Source: an uncultured Gammaproteobacteria bacterium
Lineage (GTDB): Bacteria > Patescibacteriota > Microgenomatia > Levybacterales > UBA12049
Assembly: GCA_964507055.1 (NCBI GenBank)
Contig: CAZDOJ010000002.1
Span: 66,716 to 119,202, forward strand
Length of the DNA: 52,487 nt
Direction of reading: 5' to 3'
Shown: positions 11,239 to 25,591 of the stretch, one piece after another
Numbering within the stretch: the stretch's first letter is position 1
Layout of the letters: the number at the start of each line of letters is the position of its first letter
The notes under the pieces: model-generated
The model's input: the letters and a program-made list of their open reading frames with translations, nothing else
Databases searched by the model: none
What the model was told of the DNA's origin: nothing
Made by a program: the position numbers and the translations under genes

Positions 11239-11574
11239 CTAGATACCAATTTTATAAAGTATATACATCCATAGTTTTTTAAATCCGTGTGAATCTCTCA
11301 TTTGGAAATAGCGTTTTCGTTGTCGGAAATCTTTTGTTCCGGGGAATGGAGGATTTGCCCAGCAGGAAATTATGATAAGTTCATTTTTATAATTCTTCTT
11401 TACAACTACAGTAATAGTCTTTGCATCAATAACTTTCGAATACTCGATGCCGCCATCCTTCCGATTTAGTTTCTTGTGAGGATGAGAAAGTGTATTTGCA
11501 ACAAGTGTTTGAGAAATTTTACGATCTTTTAATCGTTTGCGTGCATGATTTGTCCAAATATACTTTTGACTCAC
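11239..11574 (-). CDS. DUF4258-like (toxin-like) small protein
   Basis: N-terminus YIWTNHARKRLKDRKISQTLVANTL resembles the H-A-x-x-R-x-x-x-R-x-I signature of DUF4258 proteins. No adjacent antitoxin-sized partner. Confidence 0.45.
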   Translation of the reverse strand: MSQKYIWTNHARKRLKDRKISQTLVANTLSHPHKKLNRKDGGIEYSKVIDAKTITVVVKKNYKNELIIISCWANPPFPGTKDFRQRKRYFQMRDSHGFKKLWMYILYKIGI

Positions 11575-12835: not shown

Positions 12836-13120
12836 ATAAGCGAACTTCGAACAATTTGGCATGAAATTGAAACCTTTTTGGATTTTTGCAATGAAGCTCC
12901 TGCTTTATTCAAGAGTTCGAAGCCTGCTCTTCAAAGAGAACTTTTGAGATTTGTTGTCTCGAACCTTTATTTGAAGGATAAAAAGTTTGATTTTGAGCTC
13001 AAAATGCCATTCAACATAGTGGCACAATACTCTGAAAGTGAAAACTGGCAGGGGCTCGTAGAAGACGTTAGAACTTTTTACGCACAAAATGGAGATTTTT
13101 ATATTCCTGCCTTTACTTAA
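12836..13120 (+). pseudogene. 3'-terminal remnant of a large serine recombinase (about the last 95 codons only)
   Basis: The reading frame opens just after an in-frame TAA at 12833-12835. IWHEIETFLDFCNEAPALFKSSKPALQRELLRFVVSNLYLKDKKFDFELKMPF...FYAQN aligns by eye with the C-terminus of the intact recombinase at 22038..23660 (KWLELSTKTFNFACYARIRFMKTESLMEKKEILATIGSNFILQDKLLRLTVPKPF...IYAQN). No catalytic N-terminal domain is present. Confidence 0.7.
13079..13090 (+). repeat. Left copy of a 12-bp imperfect direct repeat (TACGCACAAAAT) at the proposed element junction
   Basis: 10/12 identical to TATGCCCAAAAT at 23631-23642. Both copies encode Y-A-Q-N near the end of a recombinase reading frame. 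Confidence 0.55.
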
Positions 13121-14679
13121 TTATCTCTAAAATCTGGCTCAGTAAATTTACCAATAGTATATTTTTTATCTGCTCTGTTTTCAAGCTCTATCTTATAAAT
13201 CGTTCGGAATGTTTCTTTGTTGATGTTTTCATAAACTATTTCCAATATTGGGCTAGCGACAGTTCCTTCTCGAAGACCGGTTCCTTCAAGATTTCCTGTT
13301 ATAACATGATACTTTTCTTGTTCAGATAATGTAGATGCTCTAAATGGCACGACAACTTCGCCAAGTGTAATACTCTTCAAAATAGCCAATCCTTTACCTG
13401 CGTTAGTTAAATCGAAGTCTGCAAAGTATCCATCTGGTCCACTTCTTAAACTGGTGATTGCTGCAGTTACGAGTGGCCGAAGATTAGGATCTTTTACTGA
13501 TGGAGATACTTGCTGTCTCTCCTTTTTAGATATCTTTGGATGCTGAAAACTTTCGGATACAGTATTTTCGACACATTCTTGAAGCAGCCTATTTAAGAAC
13601 TGTTTATTCGGAACATTGTCCATGTCAATTAAATCTTCAGACTTTGAAATTGGTCTATGCAAAGAATCATCTGAAACAGGTCTGTCTTTTAGTAGATTAA
13701 ACATATAATCTTTATCCGTTTTTCTACCTTTATAGTTATTTGCTAGTTCTTCAAATGTACTGAAGCCCAATAATGGGGGAACATGGTCTGTTATGGCACG
13801 TATTAAAGACAAACATGAAAATGCATTAGAATCGAGATAGTTTTTATTTAATTCGCTTATGAGTTTCAACAGTTTTTTATAATTGAAGCCATCTTTTTTT
13901 TGCTTTATAGCCTCTATAATTCCATCTCTTATGTAAAGTGAAATTGGTTCGGTTTCTGTCGGCTTTGAGTCATTAGATGAACTTTTTGCTTTCATCCATC
14001 TAACAAAATAGTGGGCAGATTTTATGTTTTGATAAACTAGATCAACATTACCAAGAATTTCTTTCGCTAAGGATTCATAATATAAAATAGCAGGAGTAAA
14101 AATTCCTTCACTCATGGCTTCGGTATCTCTTGACATGAAAGTTGCCGGTTGGCGTCCCTTTAGGTATTTCGTACCTTCTTCGCCATATTTTAATTTTTTC
14201 TGGTCTTCCAATAGGTTTTCTTTAGAAATTTCTGTCTGCATGTTTTTATCTGTTTTGATAACCAAAGAAGTTTCATCATAAAAATCCTCAACAATATTTA
14301 TAAGAGTTTTATATTCTCTCTGCAATTCATCAATCGAGATAGTGGAGATTTTTTCTAATTCTTTTTTAACATCTTCTGTATCTTTTTCCATCCATTTATT
14401 TGAAAGACCATTAATGCTACCCCATTCAACACTAAACCTGTCTTGGGTAGGAGGTTTTTCAAAATTTCCATAGTACAATTTATGTTGATATCCAAACCAT
14501 GATCCACTCCATGAACTCAGAATTTTAGGTATACTATCATCGAGCTTTTTTGCTTCCACCTGCAATGAATTGAGTACAGGAATTACTTTCTCTTGGAAGG
14601 AGGATAAAGATTTTTCTATTTTTTCAATATTTTCCATAGTTTTATATTTATTATTTCTTGTAATTATCCATTTAGCCAA
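13117..14679 (-). CDS. Orphan 520-aa protein (cargo gene D), function unknown
   Basis: Long uninterrupted ORF in AT-rich DNA, which has a high stop-codon background, so it is likely real. Overlaps the upstream gene by 16 nt; the alternative start MENIEK at 14637 would remove the overlap. N-terminal coiled-coil-like region, no recognised motif. Confidence 0.6.
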   Translation of the reverse strand: MAKWIITRNNKYKTMENIEKIEKSLSSFQEKVIPVLNSLQVEAKKLDDSIPKILSSWSGSWFGYQHKLYYGNFEKPPTQDRFSVEWGSINGLSNKWMEKDTEDVKKELEKISTISIDELQREYKTLINIVEDFYDETSLVIKTDKNMQTEISKENLLEDQKKLKYGEEGTKYLKGRQPATFMSRDTEAMSEGIFTPAILYYESLAKEILGNVDLVYQNIKSAHYFVRWMKAKSSSNDSKPTETEPISLYIRDGIIEAIKQKKDGFNYKKLLKLISELNKNYLDSNAFSCLSLIRAITDHVPPLLGFSTFEELANNYKGRKTDKDYMFNLLKDRPVSDDSLHRPISKSEDLIDMDNVPNKQFLNRLLQECVENTVSESFQHPKISKKERQQVSPSVKDPNLRPLVTAAITSLRSGPDGYFADFDLTNAGKGLAILKSITLGEVVVPFRASTLSEQEKYHVITGNLEGTGLREGTVASPILEIVYENINKETFRTIYKIELENRADKKYTIGKFTEPDFRDN

Positions 14680-15254
14680 GGAGAAAGATGCATATTGGGA
14701 GATATACCCAAGATAATTTCTTTTGGAAAATGATCAGTATTTCCTGTTTCATGGAACTTCATTTGAAATGCCATCCCTCGGTGATTGCCTTCTATAATGG
14801 AATGGTGATCAGTTGCACTTTTTGAAATTATAATAAGCTTTTCTTCAAAGGGATAAGTGCCGATATTATTTTTTATGTCCTCAATAAGTTGAAAGCCAAC
14901 GCCTTGGTCTGGCACATTATTTTTAATTGCAAGAACTGTATCTTTTAAATTTTTTGCTGTACCAAAAGTTTTCTCCCAACCAGTCTCTCTTATTATCAAA
15001 ATATCACCAAATTCTTTTTCATCGACAGATATTCCATACCAGTGAATATCAGACGGTAACTTCTCTAATACGGGAGATCGATACTGCCAAAGTAGATTTT
15101 TGCGGATTCGGTTGTTCTCTTCATTAGTATAATCTTTATCTTTAACGATATTTTCGAACTGTTTTCTTACCGGCTCATAAAAATCTTTATACCATTCGGC
15201 TCTGAGAAACTCCGCTTCAACTTCAACTATTGGAATTGGACGTAAAATTTTCAT
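14664..15254 (-). CDS. Hypothetical protein (cargo gene C) with an EGNHR motif reminiscent of the ParB/Srx-fold (DGQHR/DGQQR-type) families
   Basis: 196 aa. The C-terminal string SIIEGNHRGMAF resembles the [DE]-G-x-[HQ]-R signature of ParB/sulfiredoxin-fold proteins (DndB, DUF262). Single-motif evidence only. Confidence 0.5.
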   Translation of the reverse strand: MKILRPIPIVEVEAEFLRAEWYKDFYEPVRKQFENIVKDKDYTNEENNRIRKNLLWQYRSPVLEKLPSDIHWYGISVDEKEFGDILIIRETGWEKTFGTAKNLKDTVLAIKNNVPDQGVGFQLIEDIKNNIGTYPFEEKLIIISKSATDHHSIIEGNHRGMAFQMKFHETGNTDHFPKEIILGISPNMHLSPWLNG

Positions 15255-15270
15255 ATTTTTTTTACCATCG

Positions 15271-15972
15271 TTATGATGCTAAATATTCTTGGAACAGTCT
15301 TCTCGCATAGTATTTCCCATGCAGGCTTAAAACATGCCTACTGGATAAAATTACAGTTGCATATATCCCGGCCAAAATCCAAGAAAAAGCCACAGCAGTA
15401 AGATTAGGTATCAGCCAAGTAAAAATAATAATATTTACTAACGACATAGCGAGACCAATAAACGCTCCTCCTATCATGTTACGGGCGGCTCCATAGTGTA
15501 TATTGTGTTGCAGCAGCAGCCGTCCGGCTTTTACCTTTTCACGGATCAAAGTGACAGCTTCAACGATCTTTTTTCTTGCAAGTTCTTCATCCCTTTGCTC
15601 GTCAGTCTTTGAAGAAAGTTTTATATTGAAATCCGTCAATACTTGTTTATGCACTTTCTGCTTAAAGTCATCAGAATAAGTTTGATCCTTAAAAAGTAAC
15701 AATTCTGTCGTTGGGAATTTCAACTCGTCTGAAAAATAAAGGTTTTCTAGTATTGCCTTTGAGATAAATCGGTTTATTTCCATTAAGAAGTATATTGCGA
15801 CCGCAGCGACAGAGACATCGCCGATAACCAAAGCGCCTATTTTTGTGACAACATTCGTAACTGTAGCATCCATATAAAAATGGTAAGTCAAAAGAAACGG
15901 CAGAGAAGTTGCGATTGCGGGATATAATCTTGCTTCGCGAGTATATTGATCCAATTTGAGATCGATTTTCAT
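15271..15972 (-). CDS. Four-TM membrane protein (cargo gene B)
   Basis: Start moved to the internal ATG at 15972 (MKIDLKLDQY...), 1 nt after the stop of the upstream gene (TAA-t-ATG). Two N-terminal TM helices (PAIATSLPFLLTYHFYM; IGALVIGDVSVAAVAIYFLM), a charged helical middle and two C-terminal TM helices (GGAFIGLAMSLVNIIIFTWLI; AVAFSWILAGIYATVILS). Confidence 0.6.
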   Translation of the reverse strand: MKIDLKLDQYTREARLYPAIATSLPFLLTYHFYMDATVTNVVTKIGALVIGDVSVAAVAIYFLMEINRFISKAILENLYFSDELKFPTTELLLFKDQTYSDDFKQKVHKQVLTDFNIKLSSKTDEQRDEELARKKIVEAVTLIREKVKAGRLLLQHNIHYGAARNMIGGAFIGLAMSLVNIIIFTWLIPNLTAVAFSWILAGIYATVILSSRHVLSLHGKYYARRLFQEYLAS

Positions 15973-15973
15973 A

Positions 15974-17080
15974 TTATTCTTTCTCCACCTTATCATTAAA
16001 AGGGAGAGGATTTGCTTGACTCCAACCTCTATCCGGAGCATTATGTCTATGATGGATGGGTTGCCCTTTTGTTCCATATACATTGGTTCCTCTTCTGATC
16101 AATGCGTTCACAACTTTCTTGGATGGGTGTTTCGGAGCTTTTAATGCTGCCGATACTTGCGCTTTTTTTGCTTTTATCCGATCAAGAATAGTTTTACCCA
16201 CATTATGCTTACTGCCATGATGCGGGACATGTAGGAAATAAAGGTCGTCTAGCATTATTCCCATACTTTCCGCATAGTCTGCCGCTGCAGTTAGTGCGGG
16301 TATCCCTGCGTCCCCAGTAAAAAGCAGTTTTTTACCATCAATTGTTAATAACAATATAACGCTGGAGTTATTGGCCGGACTGGTTGTCCCAGAATCATCA
16401 AGAGTTTCAGTTGCGGGATCAAGTGTCTCTTCAACCCATTCGATAGCGGCTTCTGCTGCTCCTTCTACTTTTTCAATAAAGTCGGTTATCACTGTTGTGG
16501 TATTTATTCCAAGGGTTTTTTGCATGAGAGCTACAGCTGTCCTGTTCGCTTCGGGTGTGTTGTCATATTCAGCCAATAAGCACTCGTAGTATTCTTTGGT
16601 GGGGCCAAGTACATGTAAGCTCCTGTCTGCATTTGCCATACCCTCAAATGGTTCGTCAATAGGGATCTCCTTTTCAAAAGCAATTTCTTCAAGGTCTCGG
16701 ATATTGTCAAATGATTTTTGTAGCTCCTGCTCAAACTTTTTATTTGGTATCGGTCGTTGAAACAGTTTTTGCATTTCTTTTTCGTGGTCCCAAGGGACAT
16801 GCATGTAAAGATGTTTTACATCAAGTTGTTCCAAAACAACCGTTAGTCCTGAGCTATGGTCAGCGTCTTGATGAGTTACAAACACTGCATCGACAACAGT
16901 TGTTTTATAATGTGCTTTAATATGATCAACAAGTTTTTGGCCGGACTCTTTGGTTCCGCCATCGATGACAATAATGGTCTGTTGAGGGGTAGGATCGGTG
17001 AGATTGCCAAACCGCAGAGCAATTGCGTCTCCGCTTCGTTCACCATCACCAACATGAATGTAATCGATATCAAATCCCAT
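15974..17080 (-). CDS. MBL-fold metallo-hydrolase of the ComEC/Rec2-like type (cargo gene A), putative nuclease
   Basis: IVIDGGTKESG...VDAVFVTHQDADHSSGL (a variant of the HxHxDH metal motif), LLFTGDAG and LHVPHHGSKHN (the vpHHGS string typical of ComEC-type MBL domains). Soluble, no TM helix. Confidence 0.75.
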   Translation of the reverse strand: MGFDIDYIHVGDGERSGDAIALRFGNLTDPTPQQTIIVIDGGTKESGQKLVDHIKAHYKTTVVDAVFVTHQDADHSSGLTVVLEQLDVKHLYMHVPWDHEKEMQKLFQRPIPNKKFEQELQKSFDNIRDLEEIAFEKEIPIDEPFEGMANADRSLHVLGPTKEYYECLLAEYDNTPEANRTAVALMQKTLGINTTTVITDFIEKVEGAAEAAIEWVEETLDPATETLDDSGTTSPANNSSVILLLTIDGKKLLFTGDAGIPALTAAADYAESMGIMLDDLYFLHVPHHGSKHNVGKTILDRIKAKKAQVSAALKAPKHPSKKVVNALIRRGTNVYGTKGQPIHHRHNAPDRGWSQANPLPFNDKVEKE

Positions 17081-17093
17081 ATTTTATTGCCTT

Positions 17094-17122
17094 TTGACAA
17101 ATAGAGGCTACCATGATATACT
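17094..17122 (+). promoter_or_regulatory. Sigma70-type promoter firing rightward toward the XRE/ImmA genes
   Basis: TTGACA (17094-17099), 17-nt spacer, TG-a-TATACT (extended -10, 17114-17122). Confidence 0.6.
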
Positions 17123-17172
17123 TTTGTTTAGTAATAGTAGCTAAAATAAACTATTTGTTGAAAAGTAAACAG

Positions 17173-17202
17173 AGTATAGACCAGCAAACGGAGGTCTGTC
17201 AA
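17173..17202 (-). promoter_or_regulatory. Sigma70-type promoter firing leftward toward the MBL-hydrolase operon
   Basis: On the minus strand: TTGACA (17202-17197), 18-nt spacer, TATACT (17178-17173). Confidence 0.55.
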
Positions 17203-17213
17203 GAGGGGAAAAT

Positions 17214-17552
17214 ATGGATAATCAAAAATTGATTGGTGAAAGAATAAGGAAAGCACGAGGTGAAGCGGGATTAACTCAAGACGAGTTGGGTGAAAAAGTC
17301 GGCTACTCTGGTATGGGAATTTCTTATTTAGAAAAAGGACAAAGGAATATTACTATTGATATGCTTAATAAAATTGTTGAAGCATTAAATATTAATATCC
17401 ATTATTTACTTGAACCTATTGCTGGCAAAGCTCCCATAAATCATAGCGCGTTCTATGGAAGAATTAATGAGAATGAATACAGCGATGAAGATAAAAAGAA
17501 ACTTCATGATTTTGAATTAATTGTAGAAAAAGAGGCGAATAAAAATGATTAG
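17214..17552 (+). CDS. XRE-family helix-turn-helix transcriptional regulator (ImmR/CapH-like position)
   Basis: IGERIRKARGEAGLTQDELGEKVGYSGMGISYLEKGQRNITIDMLNKIVEALNINIHYL is a classical HTH_3 domain. Overlaps the downstream metalloprotease gene by 8 nt. Confidence 0.85.
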   Translation: MDNQKLIGERIRKARGEAGLTQDELGEKVGYSGMGISYLEKGQRNITIDMLNKIVEALNINIHYLLEPIAGKAPINHSAFYGRINENEYSDEDKKKLHDFELIVEKEANKND

Positions 17553-18081
17553 ATCAAAACTCGCACGAGAAAAAGCAAACAACATTTTAAGAATGTACGG
17601 CGTAAAAAAACCTGCAGTAGACGTGCATCTTGTTGCGCAATTATTGGGGTTTAAAATTATTCCTCATGATTTTCCTGAAACAGTCTCTGCAGTTATTAAA
17701 ATTAAGGATGGAGTGAAAGTTATAGGTGTTAATAAAAATCATTCAGAGACAAGACAACGTTTTTCTATCTCACATGAACTTGGACACTATTTGAGTGGAC
17801 ATGACGATTTTAGCCATGAAAAAATGGTTGTAGATAAAGAAAAAAAATATTTAGATCCTCATTATAGAGATGAGCAAGAAGCAGACGAATTTGCTGCTGA
17901 ACTACTTATGCCGGAATTTATGTTAAAAAAGGATATTCTTGAAGATAATTTAGATGCTTCCACGCTAGCAAGAAGATATAATGTTAGTGAGCAGGCAATG
18001 TGGATACAGCTTATAAATTTAGAGTTAACTCCCGGTCAAATAAAAGAACCTCCACGATCCGAACTACCTTTATCTGACTAG
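17545..18081 (+). CDS. ImmA/IrrE-family zinc metallopeptidase (COG2856-like)
   Basis: HExxH motif in ISHELGHYLSGH, with the downstream EQEADEFAAELLMPEFML typical of the ImmA/IrrE family. Translationally coupled to the XRE gene. Confidence 0.85.
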   Translation: MIRSKLAREKANNILRMYGVKKPAVDVHLVAQLLGFKIIPHDFPETVSAVIKIKDGVKVIGVNKNHSETRQRFSISHELGHYLSGHDDFSHEKMVVDKEKKYLDPHYRDEQEADEFAAELLMPEFMLKKDILEDNLDASTLARRYNVSEQAMWIQLINLELTPGQIKEPPRSELPLSD

Positions 18082-18133: not shown

Positions 18134-18355
18134 TTAAAAACCAACTGACTTACGGCCGTTTTTTAGTTTATGAGTCTTTTTAACTAATGAATTCCTTTCT
18201 GCTGGTGTCATTTCAACAACTTGATCAATTATTATATCTACCATAACTTTGAGTTGGTTCTCTAATCGAAGTATATCTTCGTCAGTCATCGTTTCTGCCT
18301 TTTTTCCTAGTAATTGTCTTGCGCGTTTAATACTAACCATAGCTGCTGGATACAT
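18134..18355 (-). CDS. Small helical hypothetical protein (73 aa from the internal ATG; the ORF track extends it to 18403)
   Basis: The start at 18355 (MYPAAMVSIKRARQLLGKKAETMTDEDILRLENQL...) avoids a 40-nt overlap with the upstream gene. No motif recognised. Confidence 0.4.
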   Translation of the reverse strand: MYPAAMVSIKRARQLLGKKAETMTDEDILRLENQLKVMVDIIIDQVVEMTPAERNSLVKKTHKLKNGRKSVGF

Positions 18356-18363
18356 TAAATTAA

Positions 18364-19143
18364 TCAACTTTCCTTTATATTTTCTGGATGCTCTTTTGCC
18401 CATGTATCAAATAATGCAGCCATATCATGTACTTCAATAACTCCCTTTTTAGTTTTTACAGAGTCATTTATCCAGCAAAATATAGTATCAATTTTTATTT
18501 TATTATCTCTGGTTTGTAATTCGGAAGATTTATAGCAGCTACTAATATGATGGCTTTTACGAATTTCAGTATTAACTGTATTTTTAATAAAAATAAAATT
18601 TGAGGTAAGTATTTTGTCTGGCTGTTTACTTAGTAACTGTAGCCATAAGTCTAACATGTTTTGCATTAATGGTTTTATATAAGAGAGCAATGTCGAACTT
18701 TGAGTAATATATAGTTCCTTGTTTAATAATATGTTTGTAGAATTAGTAAAATTTCTCCAGCGTATAAATTCTTGTTTAGATTCTGAGAGTTGAGCATATA
18801 TTTCTAAAAGCTTATTGCTATATGGAAGTGGTTTTATAAGGTTAAATTCTACAATCTTTTCTATAACAATAGTTCGAGGAGGATAGTGAGGAACATGAAT
18901 ACCTTTATCATCGGTTAAGTTTTTTTCGTAGGATCGTTCAATTTGTGAAATATTATTTAAATTTATCCATAGTTCATGTATTAACATCCTTTCAATTTCC
19001 GTTTTATTACTTTTATTATTTGAGGATTCAATTATTCGTCCTGCCCAAATACTGAAAGGAATTGCGAAAACAATACCTACTGTAGTTAATACGCCTTGGT
19101 TGTTATTTAGAATTTCTGAGATATTCATATTTGGACATACCAT
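18364..19143 (-). CDS. Hypothetical protein with one N-terminal TM helix (259 aa)
   Basis: Long ORF in very AT-rich DNA (spot count 18% GC on one line). TM helix GVLTTVGIVFAIPFSIWAG. No recognised domain. Confidence 0.55.
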   Translation of the reverse strand: MVCPNMNISEILNNNQGVLTTVGIVFAIPFSIWAGRIIESSNNKSNKTEIERMLIHELWINLNNISQIERSYEKNLTDDKGIHVPHYPPRTIVIEKIVEFNLIKPLPYSNKLLEIYAQLSESKQEFIRWRNFTNSTNILLNKELYITQSSTLLSYIKPLMQNMLDLWLQLLSKQPDKILTSNFIFIKNTVNTEIRKSHHISSCYKSSELQTRDNKIKIDTIFCWINDSVKTKKGVIEVHDMAALFDTWAKEHPENIKES

Positions 19144-20121: not shown

Positions 20122-20245
20122 AAGTGTATCCTCATATATTCACTATAGGTTGAAATTGATTATAGATTACTATATCAATAAAATCAAGTACTAATTCTAC
20201 TAGTTGTGCGTATTACTAAAAGTAGATATTTGTTACAAATTTAAT

Positions 20246-20470
20246 ATGTTAAGCAGAACAAAATATACTGAAATCGTAGGCAATAATATCCGTGAAGTCC
20301 GAAAAAGAAAAGGGCTTAGCCAGGACGAACTCGCTGCGAAATGCGGATTTTATCGGACATATATTAATTTAGTAGAAACTGCTAAAAGAAGTCCGTCAGG
20401 ATACTCACTATACAGGATTGCAAAAGGACTAGGAGTGCAAGTAGATGAACTTTTCCCAACAACAGTATAA
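20246..20470 (+). CDS. XRE-family HTH regulator (74 aa from the ATG at 20246)
   Basis: VGNNIREVRKRKGLSQDELAAKCGFYRTYINLVETAKRSPSGYSLYRIAKGLGVQVDELF is a classical HTH_3 domain. The ORF-track TTG start at 20204 is probably too far upstream. Confidence 0.8.
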   Translation: MLSRTKYTEIVGNNIREVRKRKGLSQDELAAKCGFYRTYINLVETAKRSPSGYSLYRIAKGLGVQVDELFPTTV

Positions 20471-20663: not shown

Positions 20664-20716
20664 GGTTGGGGATAAAACCGGGCTTTTTGGTTCCCCAACC
20701 AAGCCCGGTTTTTTGT
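20664..20716 (+). terminator. Interlocked inverted repeats; the distal pair is a terminator-like hairpin with an A-tract and a T-tract
   Basis: A=GGTTGGGGA (20664-20672) pairs with TCCCCAACC (20692-20700). B=AAACCGGGCTT (20675-20685) pairs with AAGCCCGGTTT (20701-20711), followed by TTTTG. Confidence 0.5.
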
Positions 20717-20723
20717 GGAAAAT

Positions 20724-20894
20724 ATGCTATCGAAGAGAGCAATCAATGATTTCAAAGTGATCTATAAAAAGGAGTTTGGAGTAGAAATATCAGATCAAGA
20801 AGCACAAGAGCAGGGAGAAAAACTTTTGCGCTTATTCAAAATAATTTACAAGCCAATTCCCAAAGAGTGGATTGAACACAAGAATAGAAAATAA
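20724..20894 (+). CDS. Small hypothetical protein (56 aa), below the ORF-track cutoff
   Basis: Own translation: MLSKRAINDFKVIYKKEFGVEISDQEAQEQGEKLLRLFKIIYKPIPKEWIEHKNRK. Starts right after the terminator-like structure, on the same strand as the downstream element genes. Confidence 0.4.
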   Translation: MLSKRAINDFKVIYKKEFGVEISDQEAQEQGEKLLRLFKIIYKPIPKEWIEHKNRK

Positions 20895-22037: not shown

Positions 22038-23660
22038 ATGTATATACCACAAGACTTAAAAAATATAACTTTTGATATTTATAAACGCCGAAGTAGCGAC
22101 GATGCAGATCATCAAGTTGCTTCTCTGGAGTCCCAGCATGAAGTATTAATAAATCTAGTTAAGGATAATAAGATCAAAATAGGCCAAATTGTTGAGGAAT
22201 CTATGTCTGCAAAGCAACCTGGAAGGCCGGTATTTAATGAAGAAATACGAAGAATTGAGCTTGGAGAAATCCAGGGACTTATTATTTGGGATTTATCTCG
22301 CGCCTCTCGTAATCCTGTGGATAGTGGTACGTTAAGCTGGTTGCTGCAAAAAGAAAAATTAAAAGCAATTATTACTCCTCACAAAATATATTTGCCCGAA
22401 GATAATGTTCTACTTCTAAATGTAGAATTTGGTATGGCAAATCAATATTTGCGAGATCTATCAAGAAACGTGAAGCGAGGTATGCAGAACAAGCTTAATA
22501 ATGGCTGGAGACCGGGAATTGTTCCTGAGGGCTATTCACATGATTTAGTGTCCGAACGAGGTAAAAAGGAAATTCTAACAGATTCTGTGCGGTTTCCTCT
22601 AATTCGTAGAGCTTGGGATTTACTTTTAACTGGAAATTACACAGTTCAGCAGATTTTGAGGATCATGAATCATGATTGGGGGTATCGTACAAATAGGCAT
22701 AGAAGCTTAGGAGGAAAGGAATTAGGAAAATCATCTATATATACCATATTTACAAATACATTCTATTATGGAGAGTTTGAATATCCTTTAAATAGTGGGA
22801 AATGGTATGAAGGTAAGCACGAAAAGATGATAACGAAAGCTGAATATGATAAAGCTCAGACAATACTTGGAGCACGAGGCAAACCGAGACCAAAAAGGAA
22901 GGAATTTGCTTTTACTGGAATGATACGATGTGGTGAATGTAATGCAATGGTTACAGCTGAAGAAAAGATAAATAGATTTGGATCAAGATATACATATTAT
23001 CACTGTACTAAACGTGTAAATAAGAAATGCGGTCAACGATCAATAGAGCTTGATGACTTTGAAGAACAAGTTGATTTTCTTCTTTCACGAATTGAAATAC
23101 CGGAATCATTCAAAGATTGGGCTATAAAGTATCTTAATGAACTACATGATAAAGAGTCAAAAGATCAAGATGTGATAGTAACGAGTGTGGATACAGCTTG
23201 CAAAAACTGTTTGACCAAAATAAACAATCTCATAAAATTGAAAATATCTCCTATGAATGAGGATGGCTCTTTGTTATCAGATGAAGATTTTGAACGACAA
23301 ATGAAACCTTTGAAACAAGAAAAGAAGAGTTTGGAGAGTAATAGACAGAACTTAGGAGAACGTGCAGATAAATGGCTTGAGCTATCGACTAAGACCTTTA
23401 ATTTTGCTTGTTATGCACGAATTCGATTTATGAAGACTGAATCACTTATGGAGAAGAAAGAGATATTGGCGACAATCGGTTCGAACTTTATTCTACAAGA
23501 CAAATTATTGCGACTTACCGTGCCAAAACCGTTTATTGCTATTCAAAAAGCGAAGGATAAGGTAGATGAATTAATTGCTAGGTTCGAACCCGAAGAAAAG
23601 ACTGATGTGTCAAGCCAAATGATGTACATATATGCCCAAAATTCGTCATTGCAGGGGTAG
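22038..23660 (+). CDS. Large serine recombinase/integrase
   Basis: Resolvase-type N-terminus YKRRSSDDADHQVASLESQ (catalytic Ser), a recombinase domain, the zinc ribbon CGECNAMVTAEEK...YYHCTKRVNKKCGQRS and a coiled-coil C-terminal region. The last 9 nt overlap tRNA-Trp. Confidence 0.9.
   Translation: MYIPQDLKNITFDIYKRRSSDDADHQVASLESQHEVLINLVKDNKIKIGQIVEESMSAKQPGRPVFNEEIRRIELGEIQGLIIWDLSRASRNPVDSGTLSWLLQKEKLKAIITPHKIYLPEDNVLLLNVEFGMANQYLRDLSRNVKRGMQNKLNNGWRPGIVPEGYSHDLVSERGKKEILTDSVRFPLIRRAWDLLLTGNYTVQQILRIMNHDWGYRTNRHRSLGGKELGKSSIYTIFTNTFYYGEFEYPLNSGKWYEGKHEKMITKAEYDKAQTILGARGKPRPKRKEFAFTGMIRCGECNAMVTAEEKINRFGSRYTYYHCTKRVNKKCGQRSIELDDFEEQVDFLLSRIEIPESFKDWAIKYLNELHDKESKDQDVIVTSVDTACKNCLTKINNLIKLKISPMNEDGSLLSDEDFERQMKPLKQEKKSLESNRQNLGERADKWLELSTKTFNFACYARIRFMKTESLMEKKEILATIGSNFILQDKLLRLTVPKPFIAIQKAKDKVDELIARFEPEEKTDVSSQMMYIYAQNSSLQG
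23631..23642 (+). repeat. Right copy of the 12-bp imperfect direct repeat (TATGCCCAAAAT)
   Basis: 10/12 identical to 13079-13090. Encodes Y-A-Q-N of the intact recombinase. The two reading frames diverge completely after this point. Confidence 0.55.
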
Positions 23661-23722
23661 AGGGAATCGAACCCCCAGTCGCGGTTTTGGAGACCGCTGG
23701 TTTACCGTTAACCGATACCCCT
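23652..23722 (-). tRNA. trnW: tRNA-Trp (anticodon CCA)
   Basis: Hand-folded cloverleaf: AGGGGTA-TC-GGTT-AACGGTA-AACC-A-GCGGT-CTCCAAA-ACCGC-GACT-GGGGG-TTCGATT-CCCTC-TACCCCT-G. 71 nt, CCA not encoded. Confidence 0.9.
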
Positions 23723-24607: not shown

Positions 24608-24676
24608 ACGAGTGATTATACACTATTTGCGGCAGGTTTGGAAGAGCCTTTGATAAATTCATCAAAGGTTATTCTG

Positions 24677-24748
<72 letters not shown>

Positions 24749-24811
24749 ACGTTTTAACGCGATTGAACTATTGTAGCAAATTTTTTTGAGTGTGTCTTAC
24801 GGATTTTGGGG

Positions 24812-24840
24812 TTGCCCAAGCAAAGAAGGTCTGATAAAAT
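24812..24840 (+). promoter_or_regulatory. Candidate promoter for the tRNA-Thr/tRNA-Tyr pair
   Basis: TTGCCC (24812-24817), 17-nt spacer, TAAAAT (24835-24840), about 17 nt upstream of the tRNA 5' end. Confidence 0.4.
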
Positions 24841-24856
24841 TGCATTTGTGGCACAA

Positions 24857-24928
24857 GCCTTCTTAGCTCAGCGGTAGAGCAGCTGTTTTGTAAACAGCAG
24901 GTCGTCGGTCCGAATCCGACAGAAGGCT
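24857..24928 (+). tRNA. trnT: tRNA-Thr (anticodon TGT)
   Basis: Cloverleaf: GCCTTCT-TA-GCTC-AGCGGTA-GAGC-A-GCTGT-TTTGTAA-ACAGC-AGGTC-GTCGG-TCCGAAT-CCGAC-AGAAGGC-T. 72 nt. Confidence 0.9.
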
Positions 24929-24942
24929 CACAGTCACAATAT

Positions 24943-25026
24943 GCTGGATTGGCGGAGTAGTCAATCGCACCTCGCTGTAGACGAGGCGGCCTTCGGCCTA
25001 CGGGAGTGCAAATCTCTCATCCAGCA
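24943..25026 (+). tRNA. trnY: tRNA-Tyr (anticodon GTA), class II with long variable arm
   Basis: GCTGGAT-TG-GCG-GAGTAGTCAAT-CGC-A-CCTCG-CTGTAGA-CGAGG-CGGCCTTCGGCCTAC-GGGAG-TGCAAAT-CTCTC-ATCCAGC-A. 84 nt. Confidence 0.9.
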
Positions 25027-25591
25027 CTAAGTCTTCCTTTTTTAACTCCATTAAATAAGCCAAATCTTTCTCTTCAGGAATTTTTGCTGTCCGTACATAT
25101 GTAAATCCAACTTTCTCGTAGGTTCTAATTGCCCGTTTATTCTCTGGCTCAGGATCGATGATGCACATTGTGATATCTAGTTCTTGAAATACGATTTGAT
25201 GAAGAAAAGCCTGAATCATCAATGTCCCAAAACCTTTTCCAATAAAATCAGGCTCTCCAACAAATAGATCAATGCCAGCGATGCCATCCGCATAACCTGT
25301 AGCGTCACGAAATTCTTTCCAATCCTTAGGGTAGTATTTTTGGATATAACCCACAGGTTTTCCTGTATAGTGCACGATAAAACCGTATGTAGGCTCTTTC
25401 AGCTGTTCGAAATCGTATCGTTTAGAAACTTCTTCAAGTGTGTTTATTTCGTCTTTGTCGTACCATTTATGAACATGAGGGAGATTAAGCCATTTTGTTA
25501 TTAATACATAATCTTCCGCCTGTAAAGACGTAAAAGTAATTTGTTCCGGATCAAACATGTGGGAGAAAAAAGAATCACAACCGTTCTTCAA
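24998..25591 (-). CDS. GNAT-family N-acetyltransferase (aminoglycoside-acetyltransferase-like / Acetyltransf_8 pattern)
   Basis: ITKWLNLPHVHKWY ... IAGIDLFVGEPDFIGKGFGTLMI ... DPEPENKRAIRTYEKVGF is the GNAT acetyl-CoA-binding pattern. The last 29 nt are antisense to tRNA-Tyr. Confidence 0.75.
   Translation of the reverse strand: MKNGCDSFFSHMFDPEQITFTSLQAEDYVLITKWLNLPHVHKWYDKDEINTLEEVSKRYDFEQLKEPTYGFIVHYTGKPVGYIQKYYPKDWKEFRDATGYADGIAGIDLFVGEPDFIGKGFGTLMIQAFLHQIVFQELDITMCIIDPEPENKRAIRTYEKVGFTYVRTAKIPEEKDLAYLMELKKEDLVLDERFALP

Follow-up and report, generated by a model that had tools for sequence, protein, structure and literature searches.

A serine-recombinase island in a Patescibacteria-like genome very probably carries a stack of three independent accessory modules, one of them a regulated MBL-membrane protein pair

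We analyzed a 52,487-nucleotide stretch of contig CAZDOJ010000002.1 (assembly GCA_964507055.1; "the window" denotes this whole stretch), in which four minus-strand genes, here termed A to D, lie on an island bounded by a serine recombinase beside a tRNA-Trp gene, in a Patescibacteria-like genome. The region between 13.1 and 17.1 kb is very probably a stack of three independent accessory modules. The conserved unit, and the only multi-gene unit in the stretch, spans 15271 to 18081 and consists of XRE and M78 regulator genes facing a metallo-beta-lactamase (MBL) gene and a transmembrane (TM) protein gene. The explanation that we find best, and favor with some reservation, is that genes A and B with XRE and M78 would form a damage-induced, membrane-coupled DNase, C and D being separate. 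The features concerned are as follows.

15974-17080, minus strand: gene A, 368 aa (open reading frame [ORF] listing)
15271-15972, minus strand: gene B, 233 aa, with its ATG at 15972 (ORF listing)
14664-15254, minus strand: gene C, 196 aa (ORF listing)
13117-14637 (ATG at 14637, 506 aa) or 13117-14679 (TTG, 520 aa), minus strand: gene D
17081-17213: control region of 133 bp, with face-to-face near-consensus sigma-70-type promoters and imperfect inverted repeats
17214-17552, plus strand: XRE-type helix-turn-helix (HTH) repressor, CapH/ImmR-like, 112 aa (Pfam HTH_3, 9.7e-14)
17545-18081, plus strand: M78 zinc peptidase, ImmA/IrrE/CapP-like, 178 aa (Pfam Peptidase_M78, 1.2e-22)

We looked into the co-occurrence of the four genes in 51 loci fetched via relatives of A, B, C, or D. 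By tblastn, A and B were together 7 times (more often by hidden Markov models [HMMs]), and we never found C or D with A or B, nor C with D. This lack of co-occurrence, together with a step in the GC content of third codon positions (GC3) between A-B (34 to 36%) and C-D (25 to 27%), argues for the independence of the modules. The initial annotation had read A to D as a single four-gene nuclease/membrane-effector immune system, with two fused modules, A-B and C-D, as a fallback. Proteins A to D acting together as one system would fit with four co-directional genes spaced by 1, 16, and 26 nt, a single strong upstream promoter, and no predicted minus-strand terminator. Against it stand the GC3 discontinuity, the 0 of 51 loci that combine C or D with A or B, the occurrence of C and D each alone in unrelated contexts, and three loci devoid of C and D, two of which carry A-B with the regulators (L049 and L022) and one A-B with a related recombinase (L028). 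The one-system reading is thus largely refuted by comparative genomics, and we give it hardly any weight; tight co-directional packing on a mobile island is not a sufficient sign of one system here. The fallback survives in part, as homologues of A and B do co-occur (20 of 23 loci, see below), but those of C and D were never together elsewhere.

The layout of the genes was largely as first described. The ORF listing and a check of the spacing confirmed four tightly packed, co-directional minus-strand genes, with the A stop and the B start read as TAA-t-ATG at 15976 to 15970 and a B-C spacer of 16 nt. Since A and B are only 1 nt apart, their translation is probably coupled. The proposed 16-nt overlap of C and D holds only if D starts at the TTG at 14679; D likely starts at the ATG at 14637, leaving a 26-nt gap, because the database copy has 506 aa and most full-length homologues (504 to 506 aa) align from MENIEK, a few carrying 6 to 8 additional N-terminal residues and one carrying 42. 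Each of A, B, C, and D has many conserved homologues, and therefore all four genes are real. The GC gradient reported along the operon exists but is milder than the spot counts suggested, with 42.4, 38.0, 34.3, and 33.5% for the whole genes A, B, C, and D, respectively.

We then evaluated the pairing of A with B. A profile search of genome contigs using A alone gave no matches, and we next used a B-family alignment, which recovered 19 loci from many phyla. In an HMM survey of ORFs, an MBL gene immediately adjoined a co-directional B-family gene in 20 of 23 unique loci covering about nine phyla, with both MBL-B and B-MBL orders seen across loci. The hosts of B-MBL pairs include Patescibacteria, Bacteroidota, Cloacimonadota, Zixibacteria, Gammaproteobacteria, and Desulfobulbaceae, as well as an Actinomycetota plasmid and a metagenome-assembled genome (MAG) of the Thermoplasmatales. 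The three nonadjacent loci do not contradict this pattern and are instructive: MBL and B are separated by a 745-aa E1/ThiF-like protein in L030, the MBL is 2.8 kb from B in L031, and the contig of L034 terminates right after B. The MBL neighbors of B homologues carry the HxHxDH, GDA, and HHG motifs, and PDC-M48B models were the best match for 9 of 10 MBLs sampled from B loci, the tenth being an additional upstream MBL of L011, of the 6A-MBL type. Conversely, A-type MBLs adjoin a B homologue on an Acinetobacter plasmid (pair WP_163078287 and WP_163078284; E value, 1e-18) and a 2+2 TM protein matching the B profile (5e-9) on a Rhodococcus plasmid. That B is the conserved partner of the MBL, and A-B a separate module, is thus strongly supported.

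By sequence, A is a cytoplasmic ComEC-type MBL-fold hydrolase of the PDC-M48B family, with a predicted metal-dependent DNase activity. Its best PADLOC match was PDC-M48B (PDLC04676; 6.4e-90, residues 3 to 366 on profile positions 5 to 356 of 357), followed by weaker matches to LmuA (7e-31), RTasMBL of DRT (3e-22), and the Avs1a MBL (5e-19). The Pfam match was Lactamase_B alone (1.3e-11), and the NCBIfam matches were all below threshold: Avs1a with 68 bits (cut-off, 420), ComEC/Rec2 (TIGR00361) with 50 bits (cut-off, 190; 1.1e-13, last ∼100 residues only), and 6A-MBL (NF058524) with 36.7 bits (cut-off, 220). The only solved relatives by sequence were the MBL domains of ComEC (PDB entries 9ic4 and 30bt, ∼1e-5). 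The motifs THQDADH, GDAG, and VPHHGSKHN are present as described. In an alignment of 13 related MBLs, D74/H75, G256/D257, and H287/H288/G289 were invariant, and the metal ligands D40, H70, D74, H75, D257, H287, and H288 were invariant or nearly so. The alignment also revealed an acidic insertion of ∼55 aa (about residues 170 to 225) before the NNSS strand, which is characteristic of the subfamily of A and missing from short MBLs. We detected no hydrophobic or TM segment and no signal-like N terminus in a hydrophobicity check of the 368 residues, in agreement with the earlier view of a ComEC-type MBL lacking the channel domain. The MBL domain of ComEC is a metal-dependent DNase (PMC8579336), and HamM and CanC, two defense MBLs, are DNases that become active once a partner protease has removed their gating insertions (PMC12799240).

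Full-length relatives of A (31 to 38% identity) were found on plasmids and in P2-like phages. A also matched phrog_7043, the underlying match being the MBL domain. We considered and rejected a phage tail protein, which is the label of phrog_7043 and of gp43 of P2_4E6b in RefSeq, since the gene is a misnamed accessory MBL. The PDC-M48B-type MBL of P2-like phages (L015, 423-1508; NC_049389.1 gp43) is termed "tail protein" in RefSeq and PHROGs, a label that looks like a misannotation.

The 2+2 TM helices attributed to B were recovered as hydrophobic blocks at residues ∼16 to 66 and ∼165 to 212, around a charged core of ∼98 aa. All 58 B homologues are unannotated, and B has no family in Pfam, PADLOC, NCBIfam, or PHROGs, with nothing in PADLOC even at an E value of 10. 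Matches to DUF2207_C (0.022) and MotP (0.0022) were subthreshold noise, and we dismissed B as a SLATT or MotP-like protein. Lysine and arginine residues number 4 in the N terminus, 18 in the central core, and 3 in the C terminus, with none in either loop. This positive-inside pattern places the central domain and the tail (YAxxLFQEYL) in the cytoplasm, like A. The central domain is highly conserved (GRLLLQHNIEYGxARN; GRLLLQHNIEYG).

We next considered the regulators. The XRE and M78 genes have an 8-nt overlap and diverge from A; their assignment is solid by Pfam, and in PADLOC they matched capH (6.3e-12) and capP (2.5e-29), respectively. As the initial annotation stated, the pair faces the operon promoter, which we identified as TTGACA-18-TATACT (17202 to 17173, minus strand, 11/12 consensus positions); a plus-strand promoter for XRE/M78, likewise 11/12, lies at 17094 to 17122. 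The number of promoter-like sites across the region equals the chance expectation, so the promoter assignment draws on position and quality only. Given this face-to-face arrangement, the A-B and XRE-M78 transcripts should have an overlap of ∼35 nt at their 5' ends. Among the inverted repeats of the region (I1 to I5), imperfect ones cover both -35 boxes and could act as operators.

What the initial annotation missed is that the XRE/M78 pair travels with A-B and is part of the unit. On an IMG/VR contig (L049), the M78 and XRE genes diverge from those of an A-type MBL and then B, which is exactly the arrangement of the window, and a Patescibacteria locus (L022) has XRE and M78 likewise divergent, with the B-MBL order, its B and M78 being 46 and 47% identical to those of the window. 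In four other loci (L010, L013, L026, and L038), a LexA/S24-type repressor gene lies directly upstream of the B-MBL pair. This recurrent linkage to cleavable repressors suggests that expression is triggered by damage or single-stranded DNA (ssDNA), the M78 peptidase presumably cleaving the XRE repressor. The island element has its own regulator, as a second XRE gene at 20204-20470 belongs to a recombinase backbone shared with other elements.

The settings of A-B are mobile and defense-island-like, unlike those of a housekeeping competence locus. The pair lies beside a HaeII restriction-modification (RM) system and Vsr in L013, and in L011 the B-MBL pair is 1 kb from a bona fide 6A-MBL MBL (381 bits for a cut-off of 220) and an E2-CBASS gene. 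In a Zixibacteria locus (L028), an A-type MBL and B are followed by a serine recombinase 38% identical to that of the window. The copy of a P2-like phage lies in the accessory region after the replication gene, and plasmid copies are found beside CcdAB or BrnTA. The P2-like phage (pair gp43 and gp42) and a Citrobacter plasmid of 5.5 kb both have, as the convergent neighbor of the MBL, a 4-TM protein of ∼165 aa matching PDC-M48A (6e-49 and 4e-44, respectively), which identifies PDC-M48 as an MBL with a small multi-TM protein. PDC-M48 stems from a guilt-by-embedding screen, as cassette FAM_01875>>FAM_00178 with the mention "assign as candidate" (Payne et al., bioRxiv 10.1101/2024.01.29.577857), and, as far as the text of that paper shows, it is absent from the systems validated there. 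The PADLOC run, which gave no match for B or C, therefore revises the statement that the parts match no named system: A belongs to PDC-M48B, yet PDC-M48 is an untested candidate and B is not its canonical partner. The XRE/M78-A-B unit is a variant of this candidate with a nonhomologous TM partner and its own regulator pair.

Some B loci have a more complex architecture. In a Bacteroidales MAG (L011, 3820-7643; also L012 and L032), a 6A-MBL MBL (NF058524, 381 bits) and an E2-CBASS gene stand directly upstream, with the B-family gene and a second MBL downstream of them, and L030 groups the MBL, the 745-aa E1/ThiF-like protein, and B in one cluster. B-family TM proteins may thus also be accessories of ubiquitin-like 6A-MBL-type systems.

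We propose the following scenario for A-B, based on what is known of the families and on the analogy with SNIPE and Kiwa. At rest, XRE would repress the face-to-face promoters. DNA damage or ssDNA, arising from infection or from the induction of a mobile element, would activate the M78 peptidase, which would then cleave XRE, as in CapH/CapP, ImmR/ImmA, and DdrO/IrrE. A and B would be produced, probably with coupled translation, and B, with its N terminus, central domain, and C terminus in the cytoplasm, would recruit or gate A, a cytoplasmic metal-dependent DNase, at the inner membrane. There, A may degrade foreign DNA as it enters or replicates or, with an abortive outcome, the DNA of the host. 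We consider an immune function of A-B rather likely and this specific mechanism, a damage-induced DNase anchored or gated at the membrane, a plausible but less secure proposal. More speculative still is a wider view, in which the XRE/M78-controlled MBL-B pair would be a widespread immune system of bacteria that extends to at least one archaeal MAG, its membrane partner positioning or gating a DNase where DNA enters, with SNIPE-like discrimination of self from non-self and a damage switch, stacked here with two further defense genes, C and D (the effector of D may be HEPN-like).

Two other functions of A-B have to be weighed. The pair may be a life-cycle or competition module of mobile elements, SOS induced through LexA/ImmA-type control, in which a TM protein and a nuclease degrade host or competitor DNA, aid lysis and release, or exclude superinfecting relatives. 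This would account for regulators of the ImmR/ImmA and LexA types, which control the induction of prophages and integrative and conjugative elements, for the presence of the pair on a P2-like phage, plasmids, and an IMG/VR contig, and for the adjoining serine recombinases. We nevertheless regard it as unlikely, because the P2-like phage copy occupies a nonessential accessory site outside the lysis and replication modules, the pair occurs on 5- to 10-kb plasmids devoid of an induction cycle, it adjoins RM and 6A-MBL systems, and the PADLOC family itself was derived from embedding within known defense systems. Less probable still is a toxin/antitoxin-like addiction pair that stabilizes the element and has no phage-sensing role, with a nuclease toxin restrained by, or cooperating with, the membrane protein. 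Although the unit is a tightly coupled gene pair and small plasmids carry it next to CcdAB and BrnTA, either gene order (MBL-B or B-MBL) occurs freely, toxin-antitoxin pairs seldom have cleavable repressors of their own, and the conserved central domain of B (GRLLLQHNIEYG) is more like that of a partner or sensor than that of a labile antitoxin.

Several observations weigh against our preferred reading of three independent modules with an immune, damage-induced A-B unit. Only about 6 independent contexts are informative for C and about 5 for D. We detected no minus-strand terminator from A to D, so that all four genes may be co-transcribed here and thereby be functionally coupled locally. The M78 protein matches only positions 5 to 156 of the 242-position capP profile and probably has no C-terminal GAF-like domain; ssDNA sensing may therefore not carry over to it, as in CapP and IrrE this domain contributes half of the groove that binds ssDNA (CapP/CapH mechanism, bioRxiv 10.64898/2026.05.16.725639). 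PDC-M48 is a computational guilt-by-embedding candidate only; a full-text search for "PDC-M48" yielded no paper, and there is no phenotype for any member. SOS-type control is also typical of the lytic or excision functions of mobile elements. B has no detectable homology to PDC-M48A, as the profile-profile comparison of the two families (hhalign) gave a probability of 0.8%, on which basis we rejected B as a diverged PDC-M48A. Lastly, the fold matches of C described below are nonsignificant one by one, though strikingly uniform.

Gene D looks like a stand-alone modular protein of a defense-island-associated family and independent cargo. Its model (AF2; pLDDT, 82) comprises, in the 506-aa form, a long helical N-terminal domain (residues 1 to 221), a helical middle domain (238 to 357), and a C-terminal beta-sandwich (390 to 505). 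The N-terminal 225 aa are common to proteins that end in a REase_DpnII-MboI domain or a CAP12/Pycsar TIR domain, which in PADLOC resemble Aga_Helical-REase and PDC-S35, respectively, and this places the middle domain and beta-sandwich of D in the position of an effector. Residues 225 to 503 are common to 389-aa proteins with another N terminus, and residues 210 to 360 alone to others. Nomurabacteria, Shapirobacteria, and further metagenomic contigs carry full-length homologues (68 to 80% identical) in the absence of A, B, and C, and no homologue was found in IMG/VR. The contexts of D comprise DpnI and PemK, SIR2 and a DUF4011 helicase (separate locus), and a serine recombinase; a relative of its C-terminal 280 aa sits directly after an SNF2/PLD helicase and an Eco57I-type enzyme. 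We discarded the RibD_C gene next to D as a conserved neighbor: RibD_C adjoins D in L005 and L006 as well, but in a different orientation, and the two RibD_C proteins have no similarity by BLAST.

The middle domain of D contains a motif, LIRAIxDHIPP, that is conserved in 27 relatives (one has N for H) and fits the R-x4-H pattern of HEPN proteins, with no Pfam or PDB profile match; this domain may be HEPN-like. A PDB profile search with D gave nothing significant, and Foldseek matched the beta-sandwich only, to generic Ig-like folds (ApaG, TRAP, and Asf1), with no match for the helical domains. Proteins with HEPN-like motifs, all unannotated and with no Pfam, PADLOC, or NCBIfam match, also neighbor homologues of C, D, or B (L004, 4658-6371; L009, 7507-8529; L010, 7667-8692). 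R-x4-H is found in three of them (RNALEH, RSNIVH, and RGGLVH), and one has GNLVHP, without the arginine.

Gene C is a stand-alone ParB/Srx-like protein of a large family outside Pfam, and independent cargo as well. A word-index search returned only 10 homologues, whose alignment we used for the metagenome scan, and a profile search of 1.84 billion representatives recovered 736 clusters, mostly of stand-alone proteins of ∼200 aa. Within the IIEGNHR motif, G156, H158, and R159 do not vary across 54 diverse homologues, and the family profile aligns ilEGNHR on the vIDGvHR motif of SbnI (E value, 0.095). The AF2 model of C (pLDDT, 89.7) was compared with the PDB by Foldseek, and 19 of the 21 best-ranked matches were ParB, Noc, KorB, SbnI, SerK, or Srx, with Pfu-392566 also present; in BFVD, many named matches were ParB/Srx or DNA-sulfur-modification-associated (DndB-like) proteins. 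These fold matches had E values of 0.02 to 3 and TM-scores of 0.2 to 0.35. Family motif, SbnI alignment, and consistent fold matches together bear out the initial annotation's comparison of EGNHR with the [DE]GxHR signature of ParB/Srx proteins. As in that superfamily (ParB, Noc, KorB, SbnI, SerK, sulfiredoxin, and DndB-like proteins), a hydrophobic strand precedes the motif, and C differs by its own N-terminal helical half (EFLxxEWY) and the lack of an HTH. C itself had no match in Pfam, PADLOC, NCBIfam, or PHROGs, none of the 54 family members matched Pfam (including ParBc, DndB, and DUF262), and a PDB profile search returned nothing significant. C probably binds or hydrolyzes a nucleotide.

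The neighbors of C change between loci, as expected for an independent gene: a membrane-anchored SNase (L002), a 326-aa protein with the HEPN-like RSNIVH (L004), no co-directional gene (L041), a GT-C-like glycosyltransferase (L047), and a 1077-aa protein (L048). Three contexts of C are serine-recombinase elements with backbone genes common to the window. C may therefore not be a defense gene at all and could help to maintain or regulate the serine-recombinase element, as a ParB/Srx-type NTP-dependent DNA-binding or switch protein. The shared o59, XRE88, and recombinase genes of L002, the shared o89 of L004, and the similarity to the ParB/Noc/KorB fold agree with this view, which we take seriously without favoring it. 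It is opposed by the lack of an HTH or other recognized DNA-binding domain in C, by the absence of C relatives from IMG/VR, and by distant relatives that adjoin or are fused to envelope-polysaccharide enzymes or follow the 1077-aa protein. Two such relatives (P0150 and P0180) are fused to the C terminus of Wzx-type polysaccharide flippases (Polysacc_synt_3), and in L047 (68-2253) a stand-alone relative comes after a multi-TM, GT-C-like glycosyltransferase of 511 aa, which is a hint that part of the C family has a role related to the envelope.

The remaining features concern the island and its borders.

22038-23660, plus strand: large serine recombinase, 540 aa (Pfam Resolvase, Recombinase, and Zn_ribbon_recom)
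23651-23722, minus strand: tRNA-Trp, overlapping the 3' end of the recombinase gene by 10 nt
12878-13120, plus strand: 80-aa ORF, possibly a C-terminal remnant of a serine recombinase, convergent on D

The description of a mobile, defense-flavored cargo near a serine recombinase held up, with the recombinase 5 kb away and overlapping tRNA-Trp. The recombinase/tRNA-Trp junction is the probable end of the island and the likely integration site; three further tRNA genes lie at 24676-25027. We sought the left border as a repeat of the tRNA-Trp end and abandoned this candidate, as there was no direct repeat of 11 nt or more near 12.8 to 13.1 kb. Related recombinases adjoin homologues of A-B (L028, 38%), D (L007, 36%), and C (L002 and L004). 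The 12878-13120 ORF weakly matches the C terminus of the L004 recombinase (residues 434 to 509 of 528; tblastn E value, 0.003; 26% identity), and in L007 an intact recombinase occupies the same convergent position after the D homologue; the ORF may be what is left of a second recombinase element.

The backbone genes of the island are o89 (18134-18403), XRE88 (20204-20470), and o59 (20715-20894). The product of o89 is 38% identical to its counterpart in L004, and those of XRE88 and o59 are 48 and 54% identical to their counterparts in L001 and L002. The elements sharing this backbone are serine-recombinase elements from Patescibacteria, and a C homologue is present on them as well. Just outside the island, the minus-strand gene at 11239-11574 encodes a 111-aa DUF4258 protein with a weak PBECR3 match (barnase/EndoU/RelE-like), which may be toxin-like.

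If A-B is immune, the pair would provide a phenotype and a mechanism for PDC-M48, which has been predicted but never tested. It would also show that a membrane partner can take the place of a protease in controlling the ComEC-like nuclease chassis known from Hachiman, AVAST, Lamassu, and canu, and, next to SNIPE, it would be the second case of nuclease immunity coupled to the membrane. A-B loci escape current tools, because Pfam, PADLOC, NCBIfam, and PHROGs have no entry for the B family. C and D represent two uncharacterized families worth annotating, the former with its 736 clusters and the latter with an effector that is swapped with REase and TIR domains. To our knowledge, the immune repertoire of the candidate phyla radiation (CPR)/Patescibacteria is poorly described, and the window documents a defense island in such a genome.

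Among known systems, PDC-M48 is the closest, sharing the MBL family of A and, on phages, plasmids, and islands alike, the placement of the MBL gene beside that of a small multi-TM protein. Its partner PDC-M48A is a 4-TM protein of ∼165 aa, whereas B has 233 aa, 2+2 TM helices, and a cytoplasmic core of ∼98 aa. The PDC-M48 genes are convergent, whereas A and B are co-directional and probably translationally coupled, and unlike canonical PDC-M48, the A-B unit carries an XRE/M78 regulator pair. With an HTH gene overlapping an M78 gene and divergent from the regulated operon, this pair is arranged as in CapH/CapP, ImmR/ImmA, and DdrO/IrrE, the peptidase of the window being short (178 aa), with a match to positions 5 to 156 of the capP profile only, and probably devoid of the GAF-like C-terminal domain.

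The ComEC-like MBL DNase fold of A is shared with the MBLs of HamM, AVAST, Lamassu, DRT, and CanC (PMC12799240). Nuclease-protease pairs have a trypsin-like or caspase partner, where A has a membrane protein; neither family was matched in Pfam or PADLOC among A to D, XRE, and M78. In the MBLs of such pairs, two gating insertions block the active site, and in A the alignment shows one subfamily acidic insertion. ComEC/Rec2 (PMC8579336; PDB entries 9ic4 and 30bt) and A agree in their metal motifs and in the C-terminal half of their MBL domains, but A has no competence channel, OB/DUF4131 domain, or TM segment and is cytoplasmic, mobile, and sporadic. With respect to the 6A-MBL system, A falls far under the NF058524 cut-off. 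SNIPE (bioRxiv 10.1101/2025.11.03.685801) and Kiwa (reviewed in PMC13276650), in which a nuclease or DNA-binding effector is coupled to the inner membrane at the site of phage DNA entry, are functional analogies only and have no sequence relationship to A-B. SNIPE is a single, constitutive, membrane-bound nuclease, whereas A-B consists of two proteins and is apparently inducible.

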